The position numbers and the translations under genes were made by a program. Under the pieces are notes generated by a model that was given only the letters and a program-made list of their open reading frames with translations, was not told where the DNA came from and did not search any database. A stretch of DNA of 18,232 nucleotides, from positions 1 to 18,232 of the forward strand of contig DAOWGI010000010.1 of assembly GCA_030637655.1 (NCBI GenBank), written 5' to 3'. Source of the DNA: a candidate division FCPU426 bacterium (GTDB lineage: Bacteria > Oederibacteriota > JAAXVQ01 > JAUVAV01). Below, piece by piece: positions 1,498-18,232 of this stretch; positions within the stretch are counted from its first letter, which is position 1; every line of letters begins with the position of its first letter.

Positions 1498-1941
1498 TCA
1501 GTCCTGGGGCTCAACACGGAAATCTTGAAGCTCATAGTTCTGCAGAAAGTCCTTGATAGCCAGCGCGTCCTCTTGTTTGAGATCTAAAAATTGAATTCCT
1601 ATCAAATAGCGTTTTCCTGAGTGGGGCCAACGCCACACTACGCGGGACGTAAGCGAAACCTTTTTTTTTACCGGAACTGCTTCGTCTTGCTTGTTCCACT
1701 TGTCAGCTTGCTCGAACTCCGGTATTCCGATTTCAATATCCAACAGCTGCCCGGTATCCAACTGTTCCCAAACCATCATGGCCACGCCACCAATGCCCAG
1801 ATCCCTGGAAATACTATTACTAAATATCGATCGTCGATCCTCTTGCCGGGAAGGTTGATACTGCACGTTGAGTTTTAATGGAAAACGCGGATACTTTCTT
1901 CGCTCTGCGATTGTCTCGCCGTGTCCCTGCTTTTCACTCAT
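1498..1941 (-). CDS. Stand-alone PilZ domain protein
   Basis: ERRKYPR (RxxxR), RDLGIGG, SRVVW, GIQFLDL. Confidence 0.88.
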   Translation of the reverse strand: MSEKQGHGETIAERRKYPRFPLKLNVQYQPSRQEDRRSIFSNSISRDLGIGGVAMMVWEQLDTGQLLDIEIGIPEFEQADKWNKQDEAVPVKKKVSLTSRVVWRWPHSGKRYLIGIQFLDLKQEDALAIKDFLQNYELQDFRVEPQD

Positions 1942-2076
1942 GCTTAGGCCTCTGTCCTGCGGTTTATACCTGCCGCGCTCTTTCAGCCGGAGTGTCGGTG
2001 TGATGATGTGTATTAATACTAATATTCCAGCTAAGGTATCTTATATAAATTTCCGGCCTTTGACAAGATAATAGTA

Positions 2077-2240
2077 AGCCGGCTGGTAACCTATCAGTTG
2101 CGGTACTAAAAGGTTTTTCAGGTTTGCTAGGAGCCTGTTGGATTTAGGCACAAAAGCGGATTTTAAACACTCTTCCCCCTTTACAAAAGGGGGAGAATGA
2201 CTTAAGTTCCTAGTACTGTAACTGATAGCTTACGCCGGCT
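2077..2240. mobile_element. Nested MITE-like/inverted-repeat element between the PilZ paralogs
   Basis: Outer IR agccggc..gtaa.ctatcagttgcggtacta (2077-2108) / tagtactgtaactgatagcttacgccggct (2211-2240), core 16/18; inner segment bounded by CTAGGA (2127) and TCCTAG (2213) containing hairpin tcccccttt-aca-aaaggggga (2174-2194). Confidence 0.55.
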
Positions 2241-2242
2241 GC

Positions 2243-2686
2243 TTAAGCGGCATCCACCTTCCCGTCCTGGAGTTTATACTCTTCCAGGAAATCTTTTAGC
2301 AGCACGGCATCCTCCTGCTCCAGGTTCATGAACTGAACACCTACTAAAAAGGTTTCGCCTTCATGGGAACGGCACCAGGCTACCCGGGAGAGCAGGGTCA
2401 CGGTTTTTTCCGCTGCTGACAGTGCCTCGTTGTCATCCTCACCGGAGAAGAGGTCTTGGATGCTGGGCAGATCGATTTTAATCCGGATTTCTTTGCCTAT
2501 TTCCAATTCTTCCTGCACTACCAGCGCAATGCCGCCAACACCCAGATCTTTGGTAATACTTTTGCTGTGCGAAGTATGTTCCCCAACATGCTCCACGGCT
2601 GCATAATTGACCCTTAATCTTAAAGAATAACGGGCATGTTTTCTTCTTTCCGCAAAGGTTTCGGCATGATGATCAGTTGGACACAT
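2243..2686 (-). CDS. Stand-alone PilZ domain protein, paralog of 1498-1941
   Basis: ERRKHAR, KDLGVGG, SRVAW, GVQFMNL; same length (147 aa) and collinear with the neighbouring PilZ. Confidence 0.88.
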   Translation of the reverse strand: MCPTDHHAETFAERRKHARYSLRLRVNYAAVEHVGEHTSHSKSITKDLGVGGIALVVQEELEIGKEIRIKIDLPSIQDLFSGEDDNEALSAAEKTVTLLSRVAWCRSHEGETFLVGVQFMNLEQEDAVLLKDFLEEYKLQDGKVDAA

Positions 2687-2739
2687 AGTTGTTCACCTTC
2701 ATTTCGTTGAATATCGCCCGTTGCGAGGCGTTTTCAGTA

Positions 2740-2766
2740 GTATCGGGTGCTATTCTTTCGGGTTTA
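2740..2766 (-). promoter_or_regulatory. sigma28-like promoter for PilZ 2243-2686
   Basis: Minus strand TAAA-N15-CCCGATAC. Confidence 0.55.
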
Positions 2767-2819
2767 ATCGAATTTTACTTTTCGCTCCCAAATTTTCTTG
2801 CTTTCCTTTTAATAAATAT

Positions 2820-2846
2820 TTGAAAAAAAACCACCTGTGCCGATAC
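2820..2846 (+). promoter_or_regulatory. Possible sigma28-like promoter for the GGDEF gene
   Basis: GCCGATAC -10 box at 2839-2846; weak -35 (TTGA at N15). Confidence 0.4.
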
Positions 2847-2878
2847 TGAAAATATTCTGTCTGAACCGGAGTTGGTGA

Positions 2879-3877
2879 ATGAAAAAAACAATTACAGCTA
2901 AAACCGCTAAACCAAAGAAGAAGCCTGCTTCCAAAGGAACGAAGTCCACGTTCGTAATCCAGGATTTTTCCATGCTGCAGGAAGAGCGGGATTTTGCCCG
3001 TTGGTTATCCAAGGACATCGCGGTCTTGGATTATTTTGCCGGAAAAACAGAAAAAGTGCCCCGGGAATTGTGGATTACCCTGGAAACATTGCGCATTAAA
3101 AAAGGCAAAGCTCTATATGTAGGATTACTGTATGCCTTGACCCACAAATATTTTCCTCCCAAGGATGCCCGGAAAAATTGGGATGATATCGTACAACATA
3201 AAACTAAATTATCTCAACAGCTCAAGCGCGATGTGAGTATGAAGGTTGCAGTCCTGGATTATTTGGAAACCCAAAATGGAAAATCCAAGGATTTGCAATT
3301 GTTACCGGAAGATGACCTGGACAATCTGATGCTCTTTGCCAACCGGGATGGTCTGACCGGATTACACAATCATCGCTATTTTCAGGAACGCTTGCGGTAT
3401 GAGATTGTGCGCAGTGAACGGTATCACCATATCTTAACCCTCTTGTTTGTTGACTTGGACCGCTTTAAAAAATATAACGACACCTACGGACATCTGAAGG
3501 GCGATATTTTAATCCGGGAGATCGCCACTTTTTTGAAACTTTCCTGTCGTCAGTCGGATGTAGTCGCCAGGTACGGCGGTGATGAGTTTGCCATCATTCT
3601 ACCGGAAACCAATAGCCAACAGGCCTTATTCGTGGCAACCCGTCTGAATAAAACCTTTCAAGATTATAATTTTGGATATAAACTGAACATGAATACTCAC
3701 CTGGTCTCGCTCTCCGTGGGAATTGCCTCCTATCCCAAAGACGGCTTTTTTGCGGAAGAATTGATTAATACTGCCGATACTGCTCTTTATCGAGCCAAAC
3801 GGAATGGACGAAATTGTATCTGCCATGGCAAACGTTTGGTTCGCACCCTTGCCAGGCGCATTAAAAAACGTACTTAA
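2879..3877 (+). CDS. Diguanylate cyclase (GGDEF) with uncharacterised helical N-terminal domain
   Basis: DGLTGLHN, DLDRFKKYND, intact RYGGDEF, RxxD I-site (RQSD) five residues upstream, SVGIA, ALYRAK. Confidence 0.95.
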   Translation: MKKTITAKTAKPKKKPASKGTKSTFVIQDFSMLQEERDFARWLSKDIAVLDYFAGKTEKVPRELWITLETLRIKKGKALYVGLLYALTHKYFPPKDARKNWDDIVQHKTKLSQQLKRDVSMKVAVLDYLETQNGKSKDLQLLPEDDLDNLMLFANRDGLTGLHNHRYFQERLRYEIVRSERYHHILTLLFVDLDRFKKYNDTYGHLKGDILIREIATFLKLSCRQSDVVARYGGDEFAIILPETNSQQALFVATRLNKTFQDYNFGYKLNMNTHLVSLSVGIASYPKDGFFAEELINTADTALYRAKRNGRNCICHGKRLVRTLARRIKKRT

Positions 3878-5016
3878 GCCCAGCCCCTTGAGTTGCGGCT
3901 CTGTAAAAAGACCTCGACCATCTCCGGATCAAACTGTTTGATACAATTCGCCTTTACTTCAGCAACAGCGTCTTCGTGTGAATAGCACTGCCGATACGGC
4001 CGTTCCCCGGTCATGGCATCATACGCGTCCGCCACGGCAATCAGACGGCCGAACTCGGGTATGTCTTTTCCTCCCAGGCCGTGCGGATACCCTCTCCCGT
4101 CAAACCGTTCGTGATGAAATAAAATGCCAGGCAGGGCAGCTTGAAACTGCGGGACTTTATCAACAATATGGGCGCCGTGAATCGGATGGTTTTTAATAAT
4201 TGAATATTCAGACTCGGTAAGTTTCTCCGGTTTGAGCAGAATAGCTTCCGGCACCCCGATTTTTCCAATATCATGCAAGATCGCCGACATACGCAACAAA
4301 TCCAGAGTTTCCGGTTTCCACCCCAACAGAGTGGCCATCTGTAAAGAATACTTGGTGACCCGTTCCGAATGGCCGCAGGTATATTTATCCTTGGCTTCGA
4401 TGGTACTCACAAAAGCATGCATCATATTTATCAGCATGCTTTTTAACTCCCGATACAACCAGGCCCGTTCCAGCTCCTGACCGGCGCTCATGGCTTCTGC
4501 GGCCAAATGAGCGACATCCGCATGTGTGAAATCAATGCTCTTTTTCCGGTTGCCAAGCAGCACAGCTCCCAGAATCTGACCGTCCATGCTTAACGGTTGA
4601 AAGCACAAACTCTTAAAACCCAGCGCCTTTTCAAATTGAAAATCATTTCCGGCAGCAAGGGTCTGTTCTGCAAAAACATGTGTTTTATCCAGTCCGGCCG
4701 GAAGCGTCTGCTGCAGACGTTGTATTGACCAGGCCAAGTTCTGAATGGAAGCTAACGAAAGATCAACACCCCGTGCCTCGTAAAATTCCAGACGCTGCCG
4801 CTCTTCTTCAATGACCAAAATAATCCCTTTGGTGGCTTGCGCTGCTTCAAACAAGCGGTCTAGTATGGAACGCAAAACATAACGTTCATCAAAAAACCCT
4901 ACCACCTTCATACCAAAAAGACTTGTGATTTTTTTCCGGGCAATCGTTGCCAGTAGTTGCTTGATACGGCGCTGGCTAAAGCGGGATGTAGCACTGTTGG
5001 AAACGATTTTGGACAT
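3874..5016 (-). CDS. GAF + HD-GYP c-di-GMP phosphodiesterase
   Basis: HSERV, LHDIGK, HHERFDGRGYP, VADAYDAM, RPYR; GAF-like N-region. ATG 5016 preferred over TTG 5124 because of a GGAG RBS and the promoter at 5102-5128. Confidence 0.93.
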   Translation of the reverse strand: MSKIVSNSATSRFSQRRIKQLLATIARKKITSLFGMKVVGFFDERYVLRSILDRLFEAAQATKGIILVIEEERQRLEFYEARGVDLSLASIQNLAWSIQRLQQTLPAGLDKTHVFAEQTLAAGNDFQFEKALGFKSLCFQPLSMDGQILGAVLLGNRKKSIDFTHADVAHLAAEAMSAGQELERAWLYRELKSMLINMMHAFVSTIEAKDKYTCGHSERVTKYSLQMATLLGWKPETLDLLRMSAILHDIGKIGVPEAILLKPEKLTESEYSIIKNHPIHGAHIVDKVPQFQAALPGILFHHERFDGRGYPHGLGGKDIPEFGRLIAVADAYDAMTGERPYRQCYSHEDAVAEVKANCIKQFDPEMVEVFLQSRNSRGWA

Positions 5017-5101
5017 GAATGACTGCTCCCGGGAAAGTCCTGCTTCATTTTTTAAGAGCCGGAACCTTCCGCTTTGCGCTAAGTTTGCTTTGTGATTAGT
5101 A

Positions 5102-5128
5102 TTATCGGCTTTCTCCCGGATCAATTAA
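5102..5128 (-). promoter_or_regulatory. sigma28-like promoter for the HD-GYP gene
   Basis: Minus strand TTAA-N15-GCCGATAA (perfect -10), just downstream of the menA terminator. Confidence 0.65.
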
Positions 5129-5139
5129 CTTTTTGTTTT

Positions 5140-5175
5140 AAAAAAAGCCGGCAGCGACCAAAGCTGCCGGCTTTT
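5140..5175 (-). terminator. Rho-independent terminator after the menA-like gene (possibly bidirectional)
   Basis: aaaagccggcagc-gaccaaa-gctgccggctttt; T7 tract on the minus strand. Confidence 0.8.
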
Positions 5176-5196
5176 ACCTGCACCCGGGATTTGGAC

Positions 5197-6102
5197 TTAT
5201 AAGAAATAAGCGACGGCAATCAATACATTCGTGCCAATGACAACTCCAACGTTGGCTCCCATGGCCGGAACTATTTTTTCAAAAACATCACTAAACCGCA
5301 AAGCGCGATTCATTGCCAACAGTGCCAGGGGCAAGGTCAATAGTGTTATTAATATCTGAGGCGGGAACCATTGCAGCATAGCACCGCTGATCAAAATGGA
5401 GTACTGGAGTATTATCGCCAGACTATACACCATAGCTGCTTTTTTTCTCCCGAGCCGGATAACCAGATGTTTGCGCCCGCCCAGACGATCTGCTTCCACA
5501 TCCGGGAACTCATTGAGCAACAGTAGCAGCGAAGTGAGAATTCCTGGTGGAATGGATAACCACAGCACTGACCAGGTTACTGTTTGGGCTTGGACCAGAT
5601 AGGTTCCCAGCACCACCAAGGTCCCTAATGTCAGTCCGGCCATAACTTCGCCCAAAGCCCATTTGGCCAGATGGGTGGTATAAAAAATAGTGGTGAATCC
5701 GCCAACCGCCATAATTGCCAAAACCCACCAGCTGGATATGGCGGCCAAATACAGACCCAAACCACCCGCTCCCAGCAAGCAAATCCAAGCCACAACCACT
5801 ACACTCCGGGGGCTGGTAAGACCTTTTTGTAAATTACCACTACCTCCTGAAAAAGGTGTTCTTTGGGTCCGGCTGTCAATCCCAGTGTGAAAGTCCGAAT
5901 ATTCATTAAACAAATTCACCGCCACATGCGCTAAAATCACTCCTGTCAGGGAAAGCAACCACGGGAGTAGCGAAAACACCCCATCCGCATGGGCCGCTGC
6001 TCCGCCAACTAAAGTAAGCGCTATGGAGAGAATAAGAAAGGGGGCGCGAATTTGCCTGGCCCAAATTTTTGGGGTTGGTTCGGATTTATTTGTTGCCACC
6101 AT
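5197..6102 (-). CDS. menA: UbiA-family prenyltransferase, MenA-like (1,4-dihydroxy-2-naphthoate polyprenyltransferase)
   Basis: NLFNEYSDFHTGID and NEFPDVEAD aspartate-rich motifs, PFSGGSG, about 8-9 TM segments. Confidence 0.8.
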   Translation of the reverse strand: MVATNKSEPTPKIWARQIRAPFLILSIALTLVGGAAAHADGVFSLLPWLLSLTGVILAHVAVNLFNEYSDFHTGIDSRTQRTPFSGGSGNLQKGLTSPRSVVVVAWICLLGAGGLGLYLAAISSWWVLAIMAVGGFTTIFYTTHLAKWALGEVMAGLTLGTLVVLGTYLVQAQTVTWSVLWLSIPPGILTSLLLLLNEFPDVEADRLGGRKHLVIRLGRKKAAMVYSLAIILQYSILISGAMLQWFPPQILITLLTLPLALLAMNRALRFSDVFEKIVPAMGANVGVVIGTNVLIAVAYFL

Positions 6103-6217
6103 TGTGCCTTGCTCCTTTTATATGATTATTTAGAATATTTTATACCAGGCTTTCTTGTTTTCTACCAGGTCTTTTCCGCTGTGATCAAGATTTTCTGTAA
6201 AAACCATCGCTTGGGAA

Positions 6218-6244
6218 TTAATCATTTCTGTTTTGTGCCGATCC
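6218..6244 (+). promoter_or_regulatory. sigma28-like promoter for PilZ 6301-6687
   Basis: TTAA-N15-GCCGATCC. Confidence 0.45.
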
Positions 6245-6300
6245 TTAGAATGCGAGAAAAAACAAACGAGTAAGTTTTTTTAAGAAGGAGGTTGTGCATT

Positions 6301-6687
6301 ATGCCGGAGAGAAGAAAATATAAAAGAATGGATGTCAATCTGCCCATCCTGTGCAATATAAAAAATCACAACAACGCGCTGCTGATCTCAGCCGTGGGTA
6401 AAGTAGATAACATCTGTCTGGGAGGTATGAAAATACACTTGCCCATTGAATTGGTTCCGCTTAAATCCCGTATAGTGGAATACACCCTGGAACTCCCTGA
6501 TCCTCTGACACCCTTGGAAGGTGAAGGCGTTATTCGGTGGGGCTATTGGGATGATACTGCCCGGGAATCGAGTTTTGGTATGGAGCTTTGCTCTCTACAC
6601 GATGAACAGTTGGCCGCTCTGGAGTCTGTTTTGATAAAATTGGTCGGTGATCGCGAATCGTTATTTATGACCACTATGACCAATTAG
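6301..6687 (+). CDS. Stand-alone PilZ domain protein
   Basis: RBS AAGGAGG at 6285-6291; ERRKYKR, NICLGG, GVIRW, FGMEL. Confidence 0.85.
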   Translation: MPERRKYKRMDVNLPILCNIKNHNNALLISAVGKVDNICLGGMKIHLPIELVPLKSRIVEYTLELPDPLTPLEGEGVIRWGYWDDTARESSFGMELCSLHDEQLAALESVLIKLVGDRESLFMTTMTN

Positions 6688-16168: not shown

Positions 16169-16501
16169 CAGACCATTTGTTTTCACTCCTGCCTGCCAAC
16201 TTGGTTACTGCTGGTTTTTAGATGAGGAATATCCAGATTAATCGTTTACACAACAGCCCATTATGCTGTGATCCCGTTTTCTCCTTCTGGTGCCGGCCAC
16301 TAAGAAACATTGTTTTTTCCCAATTCATCCAATTTCTTTTGATTTCCAAACACCGTCTCCTTACCTAACCCAAGACCATCCCTGTTCGTAGATATCGTTA
16401 TCCGCTTATCCGAACACCGGCCCCATTTACGCAGCCAAGAAACGCAGCCGTCTGCGGAAGGTGTGCAGGATGATCGCGCTGGTGGATTTGATGATGTAAT
16501 C

Positions 16502-16526
16502 GTAGGGGCGAACCTTGTGTTCGCCC
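16502..16526. repeat. GTAG-type REP hairpin (single tag)
   Basis: gtaggggcgaac-cttgt-gttcgccc. Confidence 0.75.
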
Positions 16527-16565
16527 GCCAGCGGTTTCAGTCCGTGACAAAATGTCACGACCCCT

Positions 16566-16594
16566 CGGTTCATCCCCGCTTGTGCGGGGAACGT
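16566..16594 (-). CRISPR. Solitary type I-E-like CRISPR repeat (no array, no cas genes in the window)
   Basis: Minus strand ACGTTCCCCGCACAAGCGGGGATGAACCG versus the I-E consensus GTGTTCCCCGCGCCAGCGGGGATAAACCG; hairpin and 8-nt handle ATGAACCG intact. Confidence 0.75.
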
Positions 16595-16597
16595 TGG

Positions 16598-17740
16598 TCA
16601 TAATACCTTACGCTTACTTGTCATTTTTCGTTTTCTTCCTTTAGGTTTTGTACTACTTTTTTTACTTAATGCCCGTTCAATTACTTCAACACTAGGAAGC
16701 GCCGATTTTAGTTTGGCTGGCAATGCCCTGGTCAGCTCATATTCCGAAACGCCTATCGGTTTAGCAACACCGCGTAATGTATATTCCGCAAGTATGATTT
16801 TCTTCTCTTGGCAAAGAATCAAACCGATTGTTGGATTATCTTTTTCGTGTCTCAATTGATTATCTACAACATTGCAGTAAAAATTCATCTTTCCGGCATA
16901 TTCCGGTTTGAATCCACCTTTTTTTAAATCAATTACAATGAAACAACGAAGTTTAAGATGATAGAATAATAAATCAATATAAAAATCTTCTTTTCCAATC
17001 TCAATGTGATATTGACGGCCGACAAAAGCAAATCCCCGGCCTAATTCCAGGAGAAATCTTTGCAAATGCCGAATTAAGCCGGTTTCCAATTCCCGCTCAT
17101 GAAAGGATTCTTCTAAAGTGAGAAAGTCAAAAATATATGGATCTTTAAGGGTTTGCTCTACCAAGTCTGATTGAGGTGAAGGTAGTTGCTTTTTAAAATT
17201 ATGTGTTATCTTACCCTGACGTTTGTGAGCTTGGCTTTTAATCATACTGAGTAAAACATCCCGGCTCCAGCCTTGCTCGATAATTTGCTGCATGTACCAG
17301 GCGCGATTTTCAATATCTTTCACTTTTTCCATGAGCAGAATATTATGGCCCCAGGGGATTTTTGCAACAAGCTGTTGCAAAATCTCCCGGCCGTTTACTA
17401 GTGCCACAGGCTGTGCCACTTTTTCTGATACTTTGATTTTTGCCACAGCCTGTGGCAAAATTTCACCGATATTGGGATAAGTACGGTAAAACGCTATCAT
17501 TCGCCCAATGTTCCGTTCAGAAAATCCTTTTACTTCCGGCAATTCATTACGAATATCCAATGCTAGCCGAGGAATAACCGCAGCTCCCCATCCTTTCCGC
17601 TGTTGCCGGTCATAAATGATATGGCCAACATCCCAATACATAGTGATCATTTCCACATTCGCAGAAAATACCGCGCGCGTCTGTCCTTGCCTGATTCGCT
17701 TTTTGATCTGACTTAACATTTCAATGTATTGCTTTGGCAT
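16598..17740 (-). CDS. yhcG: YhcG/DUF1016 family PD-(D/E)XK nuclease-domain protein
   Basis: YWDVG, WGAAVIPRLA, GFSERN, IPWGHN, KDPYIFDFL, FLLELG.GFAFVGRQ, IDLLFYH, GKMNFY, IGLILC; AAGGAGG RBS. Confidence 0.95.
   Translation of the reverse strand: MPKQYIEMLSQIKKRIRQGQTRAVFSANVEMITMYWDVGHIIYDRQQRKGWGAAVIPRLALDIRNELPEVKGFSERNIGRMIAFYRTYPNIGEILPQAVAKIKVSEKVAQPVALVNGREILQQLVAKIPWGHNILLMEKVKDIENRAWYMQQIIEQGWSRDVLLSMIKSQAHKRQGKITHNFKKQLPSPQSDLVEQTLKDPYIFDFLTLEESFHERELETGLIRHLQRFLLELGRGFAFVGRQYHIEIGKEDFYIDLLFYHLKLRCFIVIDLKKGGFKPEYAGKMNFYCNVVDNQLRHEKDNPTIGLILCQEKKIILAEYTLRGVAKPIGVSEYELTRALPAKLKSALPSVEVIERALSKKSSTKPKGRKRKMTSKRKVL
17360..17460. repeat. Three intragenic DNA palindromes at 39-bp spacing
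   Basis: ttttgcaaca-agc-tgttgcaaaa; agtgccaca-ggc-tgtgccact; ttttgccaca-gcc-tgtggcaaaa; centres at 17371, 17410, 17449. Confidence 0.85.
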
Positions 17741-18215
17741 TTATTCTTATTCCTCCTTGTGTAGTATAACTTTCTACACAATCAGACAGAAACGCAGCGC
17801 TTTCCTTGCAAAATATTTTATTTATTTTCAAATAACAATTGGCACGGGTATTTTCCAGTTGTCCAATTTTTCCGGATATCTCATTGTCAACCAAGGTACA
17901 ATTTGTCCCCCCTTTTTTTAGTTATCATTCGCTTTGGAAGCATCTCTATTTTTAGAACCAGCTTTAACTAAGAAAGCAGCGAACAGCATATTTATTTATC
18001 AGGTTTTGATTCGGCTTTTTTAGACTACAGATGACGATTCATTTTCATGCGATTTTTTAGAAATAATGGGGCTTCCGGGTTTGTCGTGGGTAAAAAACCG
18101 GCTAAAAGTCGGATAACCTTTTCAAATTAAGGATATATCAGTTTTTCGGTCTTTAAATAACTTGACACGTTCTGGTCACAAAGTAAGTCCCTTGGCAACA
18201 TGACTTTTATAGAGC

Positions 18216-18232
18216 CGTCACCCCGGCATGAT
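18216..18232 (+). repeat. Start of a third CGTC-type REP copy, cut by the window end
   Basis: cgtcaccccggcatgat; the last 16 nt are identical to 7027-7042. Confidence 0.75.

Follow-up and report, generated by a model that had tools for sequence, protein, structure and literature searches.

A self-complementary DNA element at a fixed codon of YhcG/DUF1016-family genes, present as an in-frame array in a candidate division FCPU426 bacterium

The window analysed here is the whole of an 18,232-nt stretch of contig DAOWGI010000010.1 from a candidate division FCPU426 bacterium, and our subject is a set of three palindromes lying inside one of its protein-coding genes. The open reading frame (ORF) at 16598-17740 on the - strand encodes a 380-residue protein of the YhcG/DUF1016 family, a predicted PD-(D/E)XK nuclease. 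Both Pfam domains of the family are found above their curated cut-offs: DUF1016_N (PF17761) at E 5.3e-40 with 137.1 bits against a cut-off of 32.8 (profile 1-137 of 137), and YhcG_C (PF06250) at E 7.1e-67 with 224.6 bits against 32.5 (profile 2-157 of 157). Judged by sequence, the gene is a full-length YhcG/DUF1016 family member; the label yhcG of the initial annotation holds as a family assignment, but not as a statement of orthology to the E. coli gene. E219, D256 and K273 occupy invariant columns in an alignment of 60 sequences (A1), in what we take to be the acidic-plus-Lys layout of the YhcG_C nuclease core; at the acidic position two residues upstream of K273, the window protein has Asp (..VIDLKKG..) where the consensus has Glu. 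DUF1016/YhcG has reportedly been placed in the PD-(D/E)XK superfamily by a published study. The gene and the elements within it are the following.

16598..17740, - strand: YhcG/DUF1016-family gene, candidate defence gene PDC-S02 (ORF; Pfam; PADLOC)
17219..17710, - strand: DUF1016_N domain, residues 11-174, all-helical in the model (Pfam; N-domain model)
16694..17155, - strand: YhcG_C PD-(D/E)XK nuclease domain, residues 196-349 (Pfam; invariant columns of alignment A1)
17348..17464, - strand: array of three 13-codon (39-bp) units, residues 93-131 (repeat search; codon reading)
17438..17460, no strand: palindrome u1, first in the protein, with 11-nt perfect arms at 17438-17448 and 17450-17460, 1 nt between them, centre 17449, encoding ILPQAVAK (inverted repeat I4)
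17400..17420, no strand: palindrome u2, with 10-nt arms at 17400-17409 and 17411-17420, one mismatch, centre 17410, encoding KVAQPVAL (sequence, repeats)
17360..17382, no strand: palindrome u3, with 10-nt arms at 17360-17369 and 17373-17382, 100% complementary around a 3-nt loop, centre 17371 (inverted repeat I6)

As the initial annotation had described, the three palindromes are centred exactly 39 bp apart (17371, 17410 and 17449; direct-repeat family D1). The arms of u1 are 10 nt long when read with a 3-nt loop and extend to 11 nt around a single nucleotide. The 13-residue in-frame units that had been noted are likewise present and read EILPQAVAKIKVS / EKVAQPVALVNGR / EILQQLVAKIPWG on the - strand (residues 93-131). 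The units are 60-83% alike, a divergence that explains why Tandem Repeats Finder returned no rows on 17200-17600. Each palindrome is centred on the first base of a codon, with codon position 1 pairing with 1, 2 with 3, and 3 with 2, and u3 sits 6 codons before a conserved Trp, which is the position found family-wide. T precedes the stems and A follows them. The difference between units that had been read as keeping the symmetry (GCCACA..TGTGGC against GCAACA..TGTTGC) is real, and joins CCA>CAA (Pro>Gln) in the left arm to a silent GTG>GTT in the right arm. The one mismatch of u2 is a lineage-specific Pro>Ala codon change in one arm, at a place where relatives have KVPQPVA.

Across the three centres, 28 of the 30 stem pairs at d2-d11, counted outward from each centre, are complementary. 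Synonymous redraws of the same peptides reached a mean of 14.3 pairs (standard deviation (sd) 2.2) when codons were taken from genome usage and 15.0 pairs (sd 2.3) when codons were permuted within the gene, and 0 of 20,000 redraws in either control reached 28. This bears out the earlier claim that selection on the protein alone is insufficient to account for the symmetry. Folded as single-stranded DNA, 17340-17480 has a z of -7.18 against 200 shuffles. The 3.28-Mb genome holds 78 perfect palindromes of such size, two of which lie 78 bp apart in the YhcG gene, and at most 21 of the 78 are inside long open frames. No other copy of the three palindromes was found in this genome at 2 or fewer mismatches of 19.

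Several simpler descriptions of the array were set aside. A dispersed palindromic repeat, of the repetitive extragenic palindromic (REP) or miniature inverted-repeat transposable element (MITE) type, was rejected since the genome holds no further copy at this threshold. A repeat-spacer array resembling clustered regularly interspaced short palindromic repeats (CRISPR) was rejected for three units that are only 60-83% alike, are translated in frame, and would consist of a 23-nt repeat and a 16-nt spacer. Sigma-54-like and other sequence motifs in the arms were dropped because the arms are not conserved in sequence. An opposite-strand ORF at 17292-17480 (62 residues, in a different phase) was rejected as a feature of its own and regarded as a by-product of the palindrome symmetry. 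A scan for intrinsic terminators gave two terminator-like sites, neither of them at 17360-17460.

The initial annotation had proposed that read mapping might reveal unit variation or inversion; we found no indel or inversion of the array in contigs of four other DNA runs. One run contig (X4, 17267-17576) bridges the array unchanged. Among other metagenome runs, contigs of two start or stop inside u3 (17349-17378) and a third crosses it unchanged. These breaks are probably not biological but arise from the way the palindrome affects the assembly graph.

The window protein has thousands of relatives (at least 8000 at E 0.001 or better, this being 8000 of 8000 scored candidates). Its 120 best protein relatives carry one to four motifs resembling [LV][PQ]Q.VA[KQ] upstream of a conserved PWGH. 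The three-unit layout is common to the closest relatives, and the array is therefore not a recent expansion in this genome. For the DNA, we sampled the 80 best of 593 confirmed loci (one genome per species), 30 loci that a Pfam search gave in 99 genomes of the phylum to which the window belongs, 39 of which have DUF1016 genes with up to 10 matches per genome, and four copies in the window's own genome. A hidden Markov model of alignment A1 picked 121 frames, from which 7 were dropped (fragments not spanning the N-domain and one duplicate locus), leaving 114 genes that span many bacterial phyla and include three archaea. The scan of these genes was blind to the peptide and called a site wherever at least 8 of 10 pairs at d2-d11 were Watson-Crick.

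The linker upstream of the conserved Trp, about 19 kb in all, yielded 168 sites, whereas the remaining 106 kb or so yielded 65; of the 168 linker sites, 162 are centred on codon position 1. In total, 107 of the 114 genes have at least one linker palindrome, and 60 have one exactly 6 codons before the Trp (position -6.0); four of the seven genes without a qualifying site have a shorter perfect palindrome with 8-nt arms at the same spot. At the fixed site itself, whether or not it is palindromic, pairing in the 113 usable genes is about two-fold over the synonymous expectation wherever a third codon base is involved (68 observed against 33 expected at d2, 73 against 41 at d4, 82 against 35 at d5, 77 against 33 at d7, and 76 against 31 at d8). 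The state of this site is bimodal, with 8-10 pairs in 60 genes, 6 pairs in none, and the background level of 5 or fewer in 47. The 162 in-phase sites divide into 60 with all ten pairs at d2-d11, 50 with nine, and 52 with eight. Thus the palindrome, which the initial annotation took to be a signal special to the variable segment, is instead an old and position-fixed feature of the whole family, and the compensatory palindromes that it suggested seeking in homologs were found, both as sites in 107 of 114 genes and as double changes on the tree described below.

Genes that do not have the -6 copy often carry an upstream one (47 of 54; 2x2 table 22/38/47/7). This table is strong when taken raw, and we considered a rule that at least one copy is needed; the association is lost in a tree-aware test (median p 0.25, with only about 3.5 informative pairs), and we rejected the rule. 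Copies of the palindromes in the fetched flanks of homologs are limited to 2 of 162; one of these lies 48 bp ahead of the frame to which it belongs, the other inside a neighbouring paralog.

The arms of different subfamilies share no sequence yet stay complementary. The same codon bears a palindrome, perfect or nearly so, in genes whose peptides are as different as LQQLVAK, VQQPVAQ, GKQAVSQ, LYTLCRE, RDAMRHE, FQTVSGK and LARLVPE. In an alignment of the site (A2; 113 rows, 12 pairs), 70.6% of cells are paired, compared with 50.5% after shuffling and 35-40% once the partner is slid; both sides have changed in 267 cells, against 117, and the covariation score is 0.471 against 0.188, a level reached by 0 of 500 shuffles. 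On a FastTree tree built from 341 columns with the linker columns left out, the minimum numbers of switches between Watson-Crick pair types at d2-d9 are 13, 15, 15, 14, 20, 22, 12 and 17, counts that are somewhat inflated by tree error; many of these switches alter amino acids. Because of the codon phase of the pairing, a substitution that is silent in one arm can usually be matched only by an amino-acid replacement in the opposite arm, and the same phase leads to covarying residues such as Leu..Lys with Val..Gln, Pro..Val with Pro..Ala, and Gln..Ala with Lys..Ser. Gene pairs at 60-70% identity, which are not independent of one another, show 118 double differences that preserve Watson-Crick pairing and 113 single-side differences. 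Altogether, the family-wide, phase-locked, self-complementary DNA element is, by these sequence comparisons, as solid as comparative evidence allows.

We also considered shuffling of N- and C-terminal modules at the palindrome. Identities of the N-part and C-part correlate at r = 0.84 over 4950 pairs, and shuffling was rejected, there being no mosaic outliers beyond about 3 sd. Two frames have ends of homology near a perfect palindrome: in a 282-residue frame (L116, G001:C14) the DUF1016_N homology ends 4 codons past it, and in an 818-residue frame (L115, G017:C36) an unrelated N-terminal part is fused to a DUF1016 part that begins just before it. Among the fetched gene fragments of relatives, only L116 has homology ending at the palindrome, and we draw no claim from this. 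In addition, many sub-models of the PADLOC candidate defence family PDC-S02, which the window protein matches at E 1.1e-145 over residues 2-361, cover only its residues ~2-108 or begin at ~117-119, so that the sequence clusters of the family break at the palindrome array.

The pattern of mismatches points to constraint on the DNA rather than the mRNA. The stem core of the 162 in-phase sites (d3-d9, 1134 cells) contains 73 mismatches, of which 16 are G·T, 22 are A·C, and 35 are of other types. In a conserved RNA helix, G·U should be much better tolerated than A·C, and the strand-symmetric spectrum and absence of a G·U excess therefore fit DNA. The earlier suggestion of a DNA or RNA signal stands to the extent that the signal is one of nucleic acid and resides on DNA, but not for mRNA. 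Rfam gave no match at E up to 1 on either strand of 16300-18232. At the centre, enrichment of the innermost pair is slight (92 of 162 sites, where 73.2 would be expected), and in Gln-type units the choice of Gln codon is independent of its partner base, CAG being used in 47 of 64 before C and in 22 of 29 before T. By these data, the conserved object resembles a stem beginning at d2 around a 3-nt loop, formed when one strand folds back, rather than a dyad that is read through its centre.

The number of units varies across the family. There are 0 palindromes in 7 of the 114 genes, 1 in 59, 2 in 42, 3 in 5, and 4 in 1; the commonest spacing between neighbours is 13 codons (15 of 54), and at least 33 changes in unit number are required on the 114-gene tree. 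The expanding repeat-spacer cassette envisaged in the initial annotation is borne out in part, in that unit number changes across the family and between E. coli alleles, but the three-unit array of the window is shared with the closest relatives and nothing shows a diversification of specificity.

E. coli K-12 yhcG belongs to a distant subfamily and has three palindromes, at codons 105, 118 and 131, with the same 39-bp period and phase. Two further copies in E. coli K-12 (L122), at 2645 and 10983, have their centres 28 nt past the stop codons of gltD and yhcG. A degenerate pattern for the palindrome has only five matches in the E. coli chromosome, all within 8.4 kb. Strains of E. coli differ here: gltD is followed either by the palindrome or by unrelated sequence, and the gltF-yhcF cluster is either present or absent between gltD and yhcG.

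The 201-nt array region is matched by 3962 of 5426 complete E. coli genomes, in 2701 of them over at least 80% of its length. One intact allele is without 78 nt, which equals two units, and another has an 80-nt deletion and a frameshift. Additionally, divergence of a truncated form sets in precisely where the third palindrome has its outer end, and in another variant a deletion starts in the left arm of palindrome 1 and stops in the right arm of palindrome 2. Roughly 4 of the 7 endpoints lie within or at a palindrome; since the query was the array itself, 40% of which is palindrome, no excess is established. Comparison of four full-length alleles shows differences at 3 of 81 positions inside palindromes and at 45 of 1047 elsewhere, the three inside palindromes being one centre base and two single-arm changes.

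In the protein, the array lies within the N-domain. A model of residues 1-180, made from 106 diverse sequences, has a mean predicted local distance difference test (pLDDT) score of 89. Units 1-2 (residues 94-116) are coil, with pLDDT 65/53/67 over residues 91-120, whereas unit 3 forms a helix (117-127) that runs into the conserved PWGH. The extra units would accordingly be placed by the model in a low-confidence, unstructured loop of the N-domain. Only the N-domain model was used because the full-length model is poor in the C-domain (mean pLDDT 53.3). VIA fold matches of the N-domain against 48,161 PDB representatives are led by ParB-parS 6s6h_B (Z 6.9, 103 aligned residues, root-mean-square deviation 5.2), followed by KorB 8qa8_A and 1r71_A (Z 6.3 each), a Rubisco assembly factor (Z 6.0) and Spo0J 1vz0_A (Z 6.0); ParB/KorB families also led with an earlier structure model. 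All of these matches have Z below 8, where a match may reflect no more than a shared helical arrangement. For the N-domain model, a Foldseek search of PDB had no match reaching E 0.001, and its weak list includes Noc 6y93_B with probability 0.54. For both reasons, a ParB/KorB-like, palindrome-binding head is a lead only. The ParB N-terminal CTPase domain was not found in the window protein with Pfam, NCBIfam gave no family on it, and a PDB sequence search with a profile of A1 gave no match at E up to 0.01. Two relatives of about 550 residues (P0044, P0108) have a Fic domain (PF02661) between DUF1016_N and YhcG_C, by sequence downstream of the palindrome segment.

How such an element could persist at one codon is a separate matter. 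The explanation that we tentatively favour, giving it slightly less than an even chance, is that these are in-frame copies of an ancient DNA palindrome whose arms are kept alike by arm-to-arm copying and which has been multiplied by in-frame duplication. On this view, the palindrome that almost all YhcG/DUF1016 genes carry, centred on the first base of the codon lying 6 codons ahead of the conserved Trp, is ancient, and it is not the bases or the peptide that are conserved but the capacity of either DNA strand to form a hairpin, its stem reaching from about d2 to d11-13 around a 3-nt loop. Template switching during replication would copy one arm from the other on a hairpin intermediate and so turn quasi-palindromes perfect, a change in a single arm being either reverted or copied to the other arm, with selection on the protein at the right arm (the helix before PWGH) deciding which outcome survives. 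The left arm and the extra units would be translated as a tolerated, unstructured loop, and units would be gained and lost through in-frame 39-bp duplication and deletion between repeats. Such copying would explain, without any function, the paired changes, the DNA-type mismatches, the loop, the kept-or-lost bimodality and the tolerated extra units, and together with this mechanism we infer that no further function beyond copying is needed. By the mutation rates of E. coli quasi-palindromes, arm copying could outrun point mutation. A kept-or-lost pattern is taken as a sign of active conversion by Mikhailov et al., in the available text of their paper (PMC6649704). Several results weigh on the other side. 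No arm-copying event was observed in E. coli alleles or in close gene pairs: the four full-length E. coli alleles show no double (paired) changes, and the two gene pairs with identity of at least 90% have 3 single differences and no double ones. Imperfect stems are common (only 60 of 162 are perfect), while the repeats of Nematomorpha are nearly all perfect. A general replication error would leave unexplained why one family and one fixed codon are concerned across bacteria and archaea, and also the near-universal retention of at least one copy, although this retention is not significant after phylogenetic correction. Moreover, coding palindromes of this kind are otherwise rare in the window genome, where at most 21 of 78 are in long open frames.

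Alternatively, the palindrome may be a functional cis DNA site (hairpin, cruciform or dyad) for the gene's own ParB/KorB-like nuclease, serving as operator, loading site or substrate, with selection keeping at least one copy and arrays adding sites; this is a close rival, at what we judge to be clearly less than an even chance. It would fit the best fold matches of the N-domain (model mean pLDDT 89), which are palindrome-binding DNA-binding domains, the retention of at least one palindrome in 107 of 114 genes and of an upstream one in 47 of the 54 genes without the -6 copy, a position that is fixed across subfamilies sharing almost no sequence there, and the E. coli copies that lie 28 nt past two stop codons, all five chromosomal copies being in one stretch. 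However, all fold Z scores are below 8 with nothing from Foldseek at E 0.001 or better, the units of one gene differ at stem positions while each is self-complementary, which a sequence-reading dimer does not require, other copies are absent from the 3.28-Mb genome and only 2 of 162 are copied in fetched flanks, and the association behind 'at least one copy' fails the tree-aware test. The self-binding operators of the initial annotation are for the same reason not supported as stated, since units differ within a gene yet are self-complementary, though the N-domain weakly resembles ParB/KorB. A more specific proposal, that the palindrome as hairpin or cruciform is the cognate target of the encoded protein with its ParB/KorB-like head and PD-(D/E)XK nuclease and that arrays tune the dose, we rate only slightly lower than the functional site in general. 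A conserved mRNA hairpin in the coding sequence, acting in translation pausing, RNase processing or transcript stability, is very unlikely: a 10-13-pair stem with compensatory changes and a largely unconstrained innermost pair does resemble a conserved RNA hairpin, but G·U (16) does not exceed A·C (22) in the stem core on the sense strand, where 35 mismatches are transversion-type, Rfam is without a match at E up to 1, there is no terminator-like site at the palindromes, and perfect Watson-Crick symmetry of up to 13-15 nt exceeds what an RNA hairpin needs. Chance, or a by-product of the peptide motif [LV][PQ]Q.VA[KQ] forcing partial self-complementarity, retains almost no probability. The motif does set three of the six inner pairs through its amino acids (Pro/Ala and Gln/Val first bases; Gln third base with Ala/Pro second base), and the expected pairing is already high at d3 (66.8), d6 (72.5) and d9 (61.4 of 113). 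Peptide-keeping synonymous controls nevertheless reach the observed symmetry in 0 of 20,000, unrelated peptides (LYTLCRE, RDAMRHE, FQTVSGK) have palindromes at the same codon, and the amino acids themselves covary as base pairing demands; we therefore rejected this explanation on the synonymous controls, the fixed-site expectation, the subfamily arms and the A2 covariation.

Both the favoured copying of arms and the alternative of a DNA site have partial precedents. In E. coli, correction of quasi-palindromes by template switching is a mutational hotspot in reporter genes; a replication error of this kind, in which one arm serves as template for its partner, would produce just such paired changes as we observe, and the process is not known as a force preserving a gene-family palindrome over deep time. 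It is cited as a mechanism in the available text of the study of hairworm (Nematomorpha) mitochondria, which proposes active arm conversion by template switching, and possibly a parasitic character, for inverted repeats in coding sequence (PMC6649704). Like those repeats as described in that text, the palindromes lie inside functional genes, both arms are translated, and codon degeneracy keeps the pairing (PMC6649704). In the window gene and the family, both arms are translated and symmetry exceeds the synonymous expectation, as in the Nematomorpha type. The Nematomorpha repeats are, as far as that text goes, many and long (up to 284 bp), almost always perfect, spread over several genes of one organelle, and gained or lost between species (PMC6649704), whereas YhcG genes have one short palindrome (21-31 bp) at a fixed codon of one family in bacteria and archaea, often imperfect and with arms that have fully turned over. 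Palindromic amphipathic repeat coding elements (PARCELs) are, in the available portion of their description, also tandem in-frame repeats with dyad-symmetric coding DNA and variable unit number in horizontally moving genes (PMC2996958). The same portion describes units of 25 amphipathic residues, of which surface or membrane proteins are mostly composed, defined by a protein HMM (PMC2996958); unlike these, YhcG units have 13 codons, number one to four, lie in a loop of a nuclease N-domain, and do not conserve the peptide.

The best fold matches of the N-domain recall ParB-parS, KorB-OB and Noc-NBS, in which helical helix-turn-helix proteins bind palindromic sites, and in Bacillus subtilis a parS site is located inside the spo0J/parB coding sequence. 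The sites of ParB, KorB and Noc are conserved in sequence and are dispersed or clustered outside the gene. Unlike them, the YhcG palindrome is free in sequence, with arms that vary from one subfamily and one unit to the next; self-complementarity is all that is kept, and copies are rare outside the gene. REP and Rickettsia palindromic elements are, similarly, short palindromes of which some are translated, the latter being described in the available text of PMC6649704 as inserting in frame. They are genome-specific, multi-copy and mobile and decay with time, whereas the YhcG palindrome is gene-specific and has no other copies in the window genome.

In agreement with the initial annotation, which knew of no account of it, our literature search, which did not cover subscription journals and supplements, found no description of a palindrome in yhcG/DUF1016 genes. 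The available text of PMC9881135 and PMC4316617 describes the family context and does not mention the palindrome, and that of PMC7967276 does not describe one in these genes. The family-wide coding palindrome of YhcG/DUF1016 genes thus seems to be undescribed in print. These genes are common, occur in restriction-modification and mobile contexts, and are uncharacterised in function. A palindrome that stays at a single codon in both bacteria and archaea, even where amino acids have to change for it, could be a first handle on the target of the nuclease; alternatively, it could be the clearest bacterial case of a self-perpetuating coding palindrome and a natural system in which to measure arm-to-arm copying. 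If the palindrome were the cognate target, a substrate would be named for a very widespread orphan nuclease and defence candidate, and every YhcG gene would carry its own site or substrate in frame, with DNA structure rather than sequence inherited in a coding region. Both readings are open to direct test in E. coli K-12, since its yhcG likewise carries an array of three units.

Other palindromes were seen in G000, on contigs outside the window. About 15 perfect 23-nt palindromes (e.g. C14:1447, C30:55808, C56:18939) have constant outer GAGAC...GTCTC ends and three different self-complementary inner stems, and two further families have 8 copies each (CAGGGGGACC... and CCCTCTCCCT...). These sets look like REP-type dispersed repeats with covarying stems. 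Five perfect palindromes with an ACAA.TTGT core (C82:38516-38978, C96:10324, C44:8300), three of them within 460 bp, look like operator sites; one lies about 210 bp past the 3′ end of the DUF1016 paralog L003 and is unrelated in sequence to the palindrome of L003 itself.

YhcG/DUF1016 genes are described in the available text of two studies in the context of restriction-modification and mobile elements (PMC9881135, PMC4316617). In the window, the neighbours of the YhcG gene are ordinary metabolic and cyclic di-GMP (c-di-GMP) genes, no defence genes lie beside it, and the contig ends 492 bp from the gene; the defence context often reported for the family is for these reasons not visible here. 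At 1498-6687, three PilZ-domain ORFs, a GGDEF diguanylate cyclase and an HD_5 (HD-GYP-type) ORF form a compact c-di-GMP signalling cluster.

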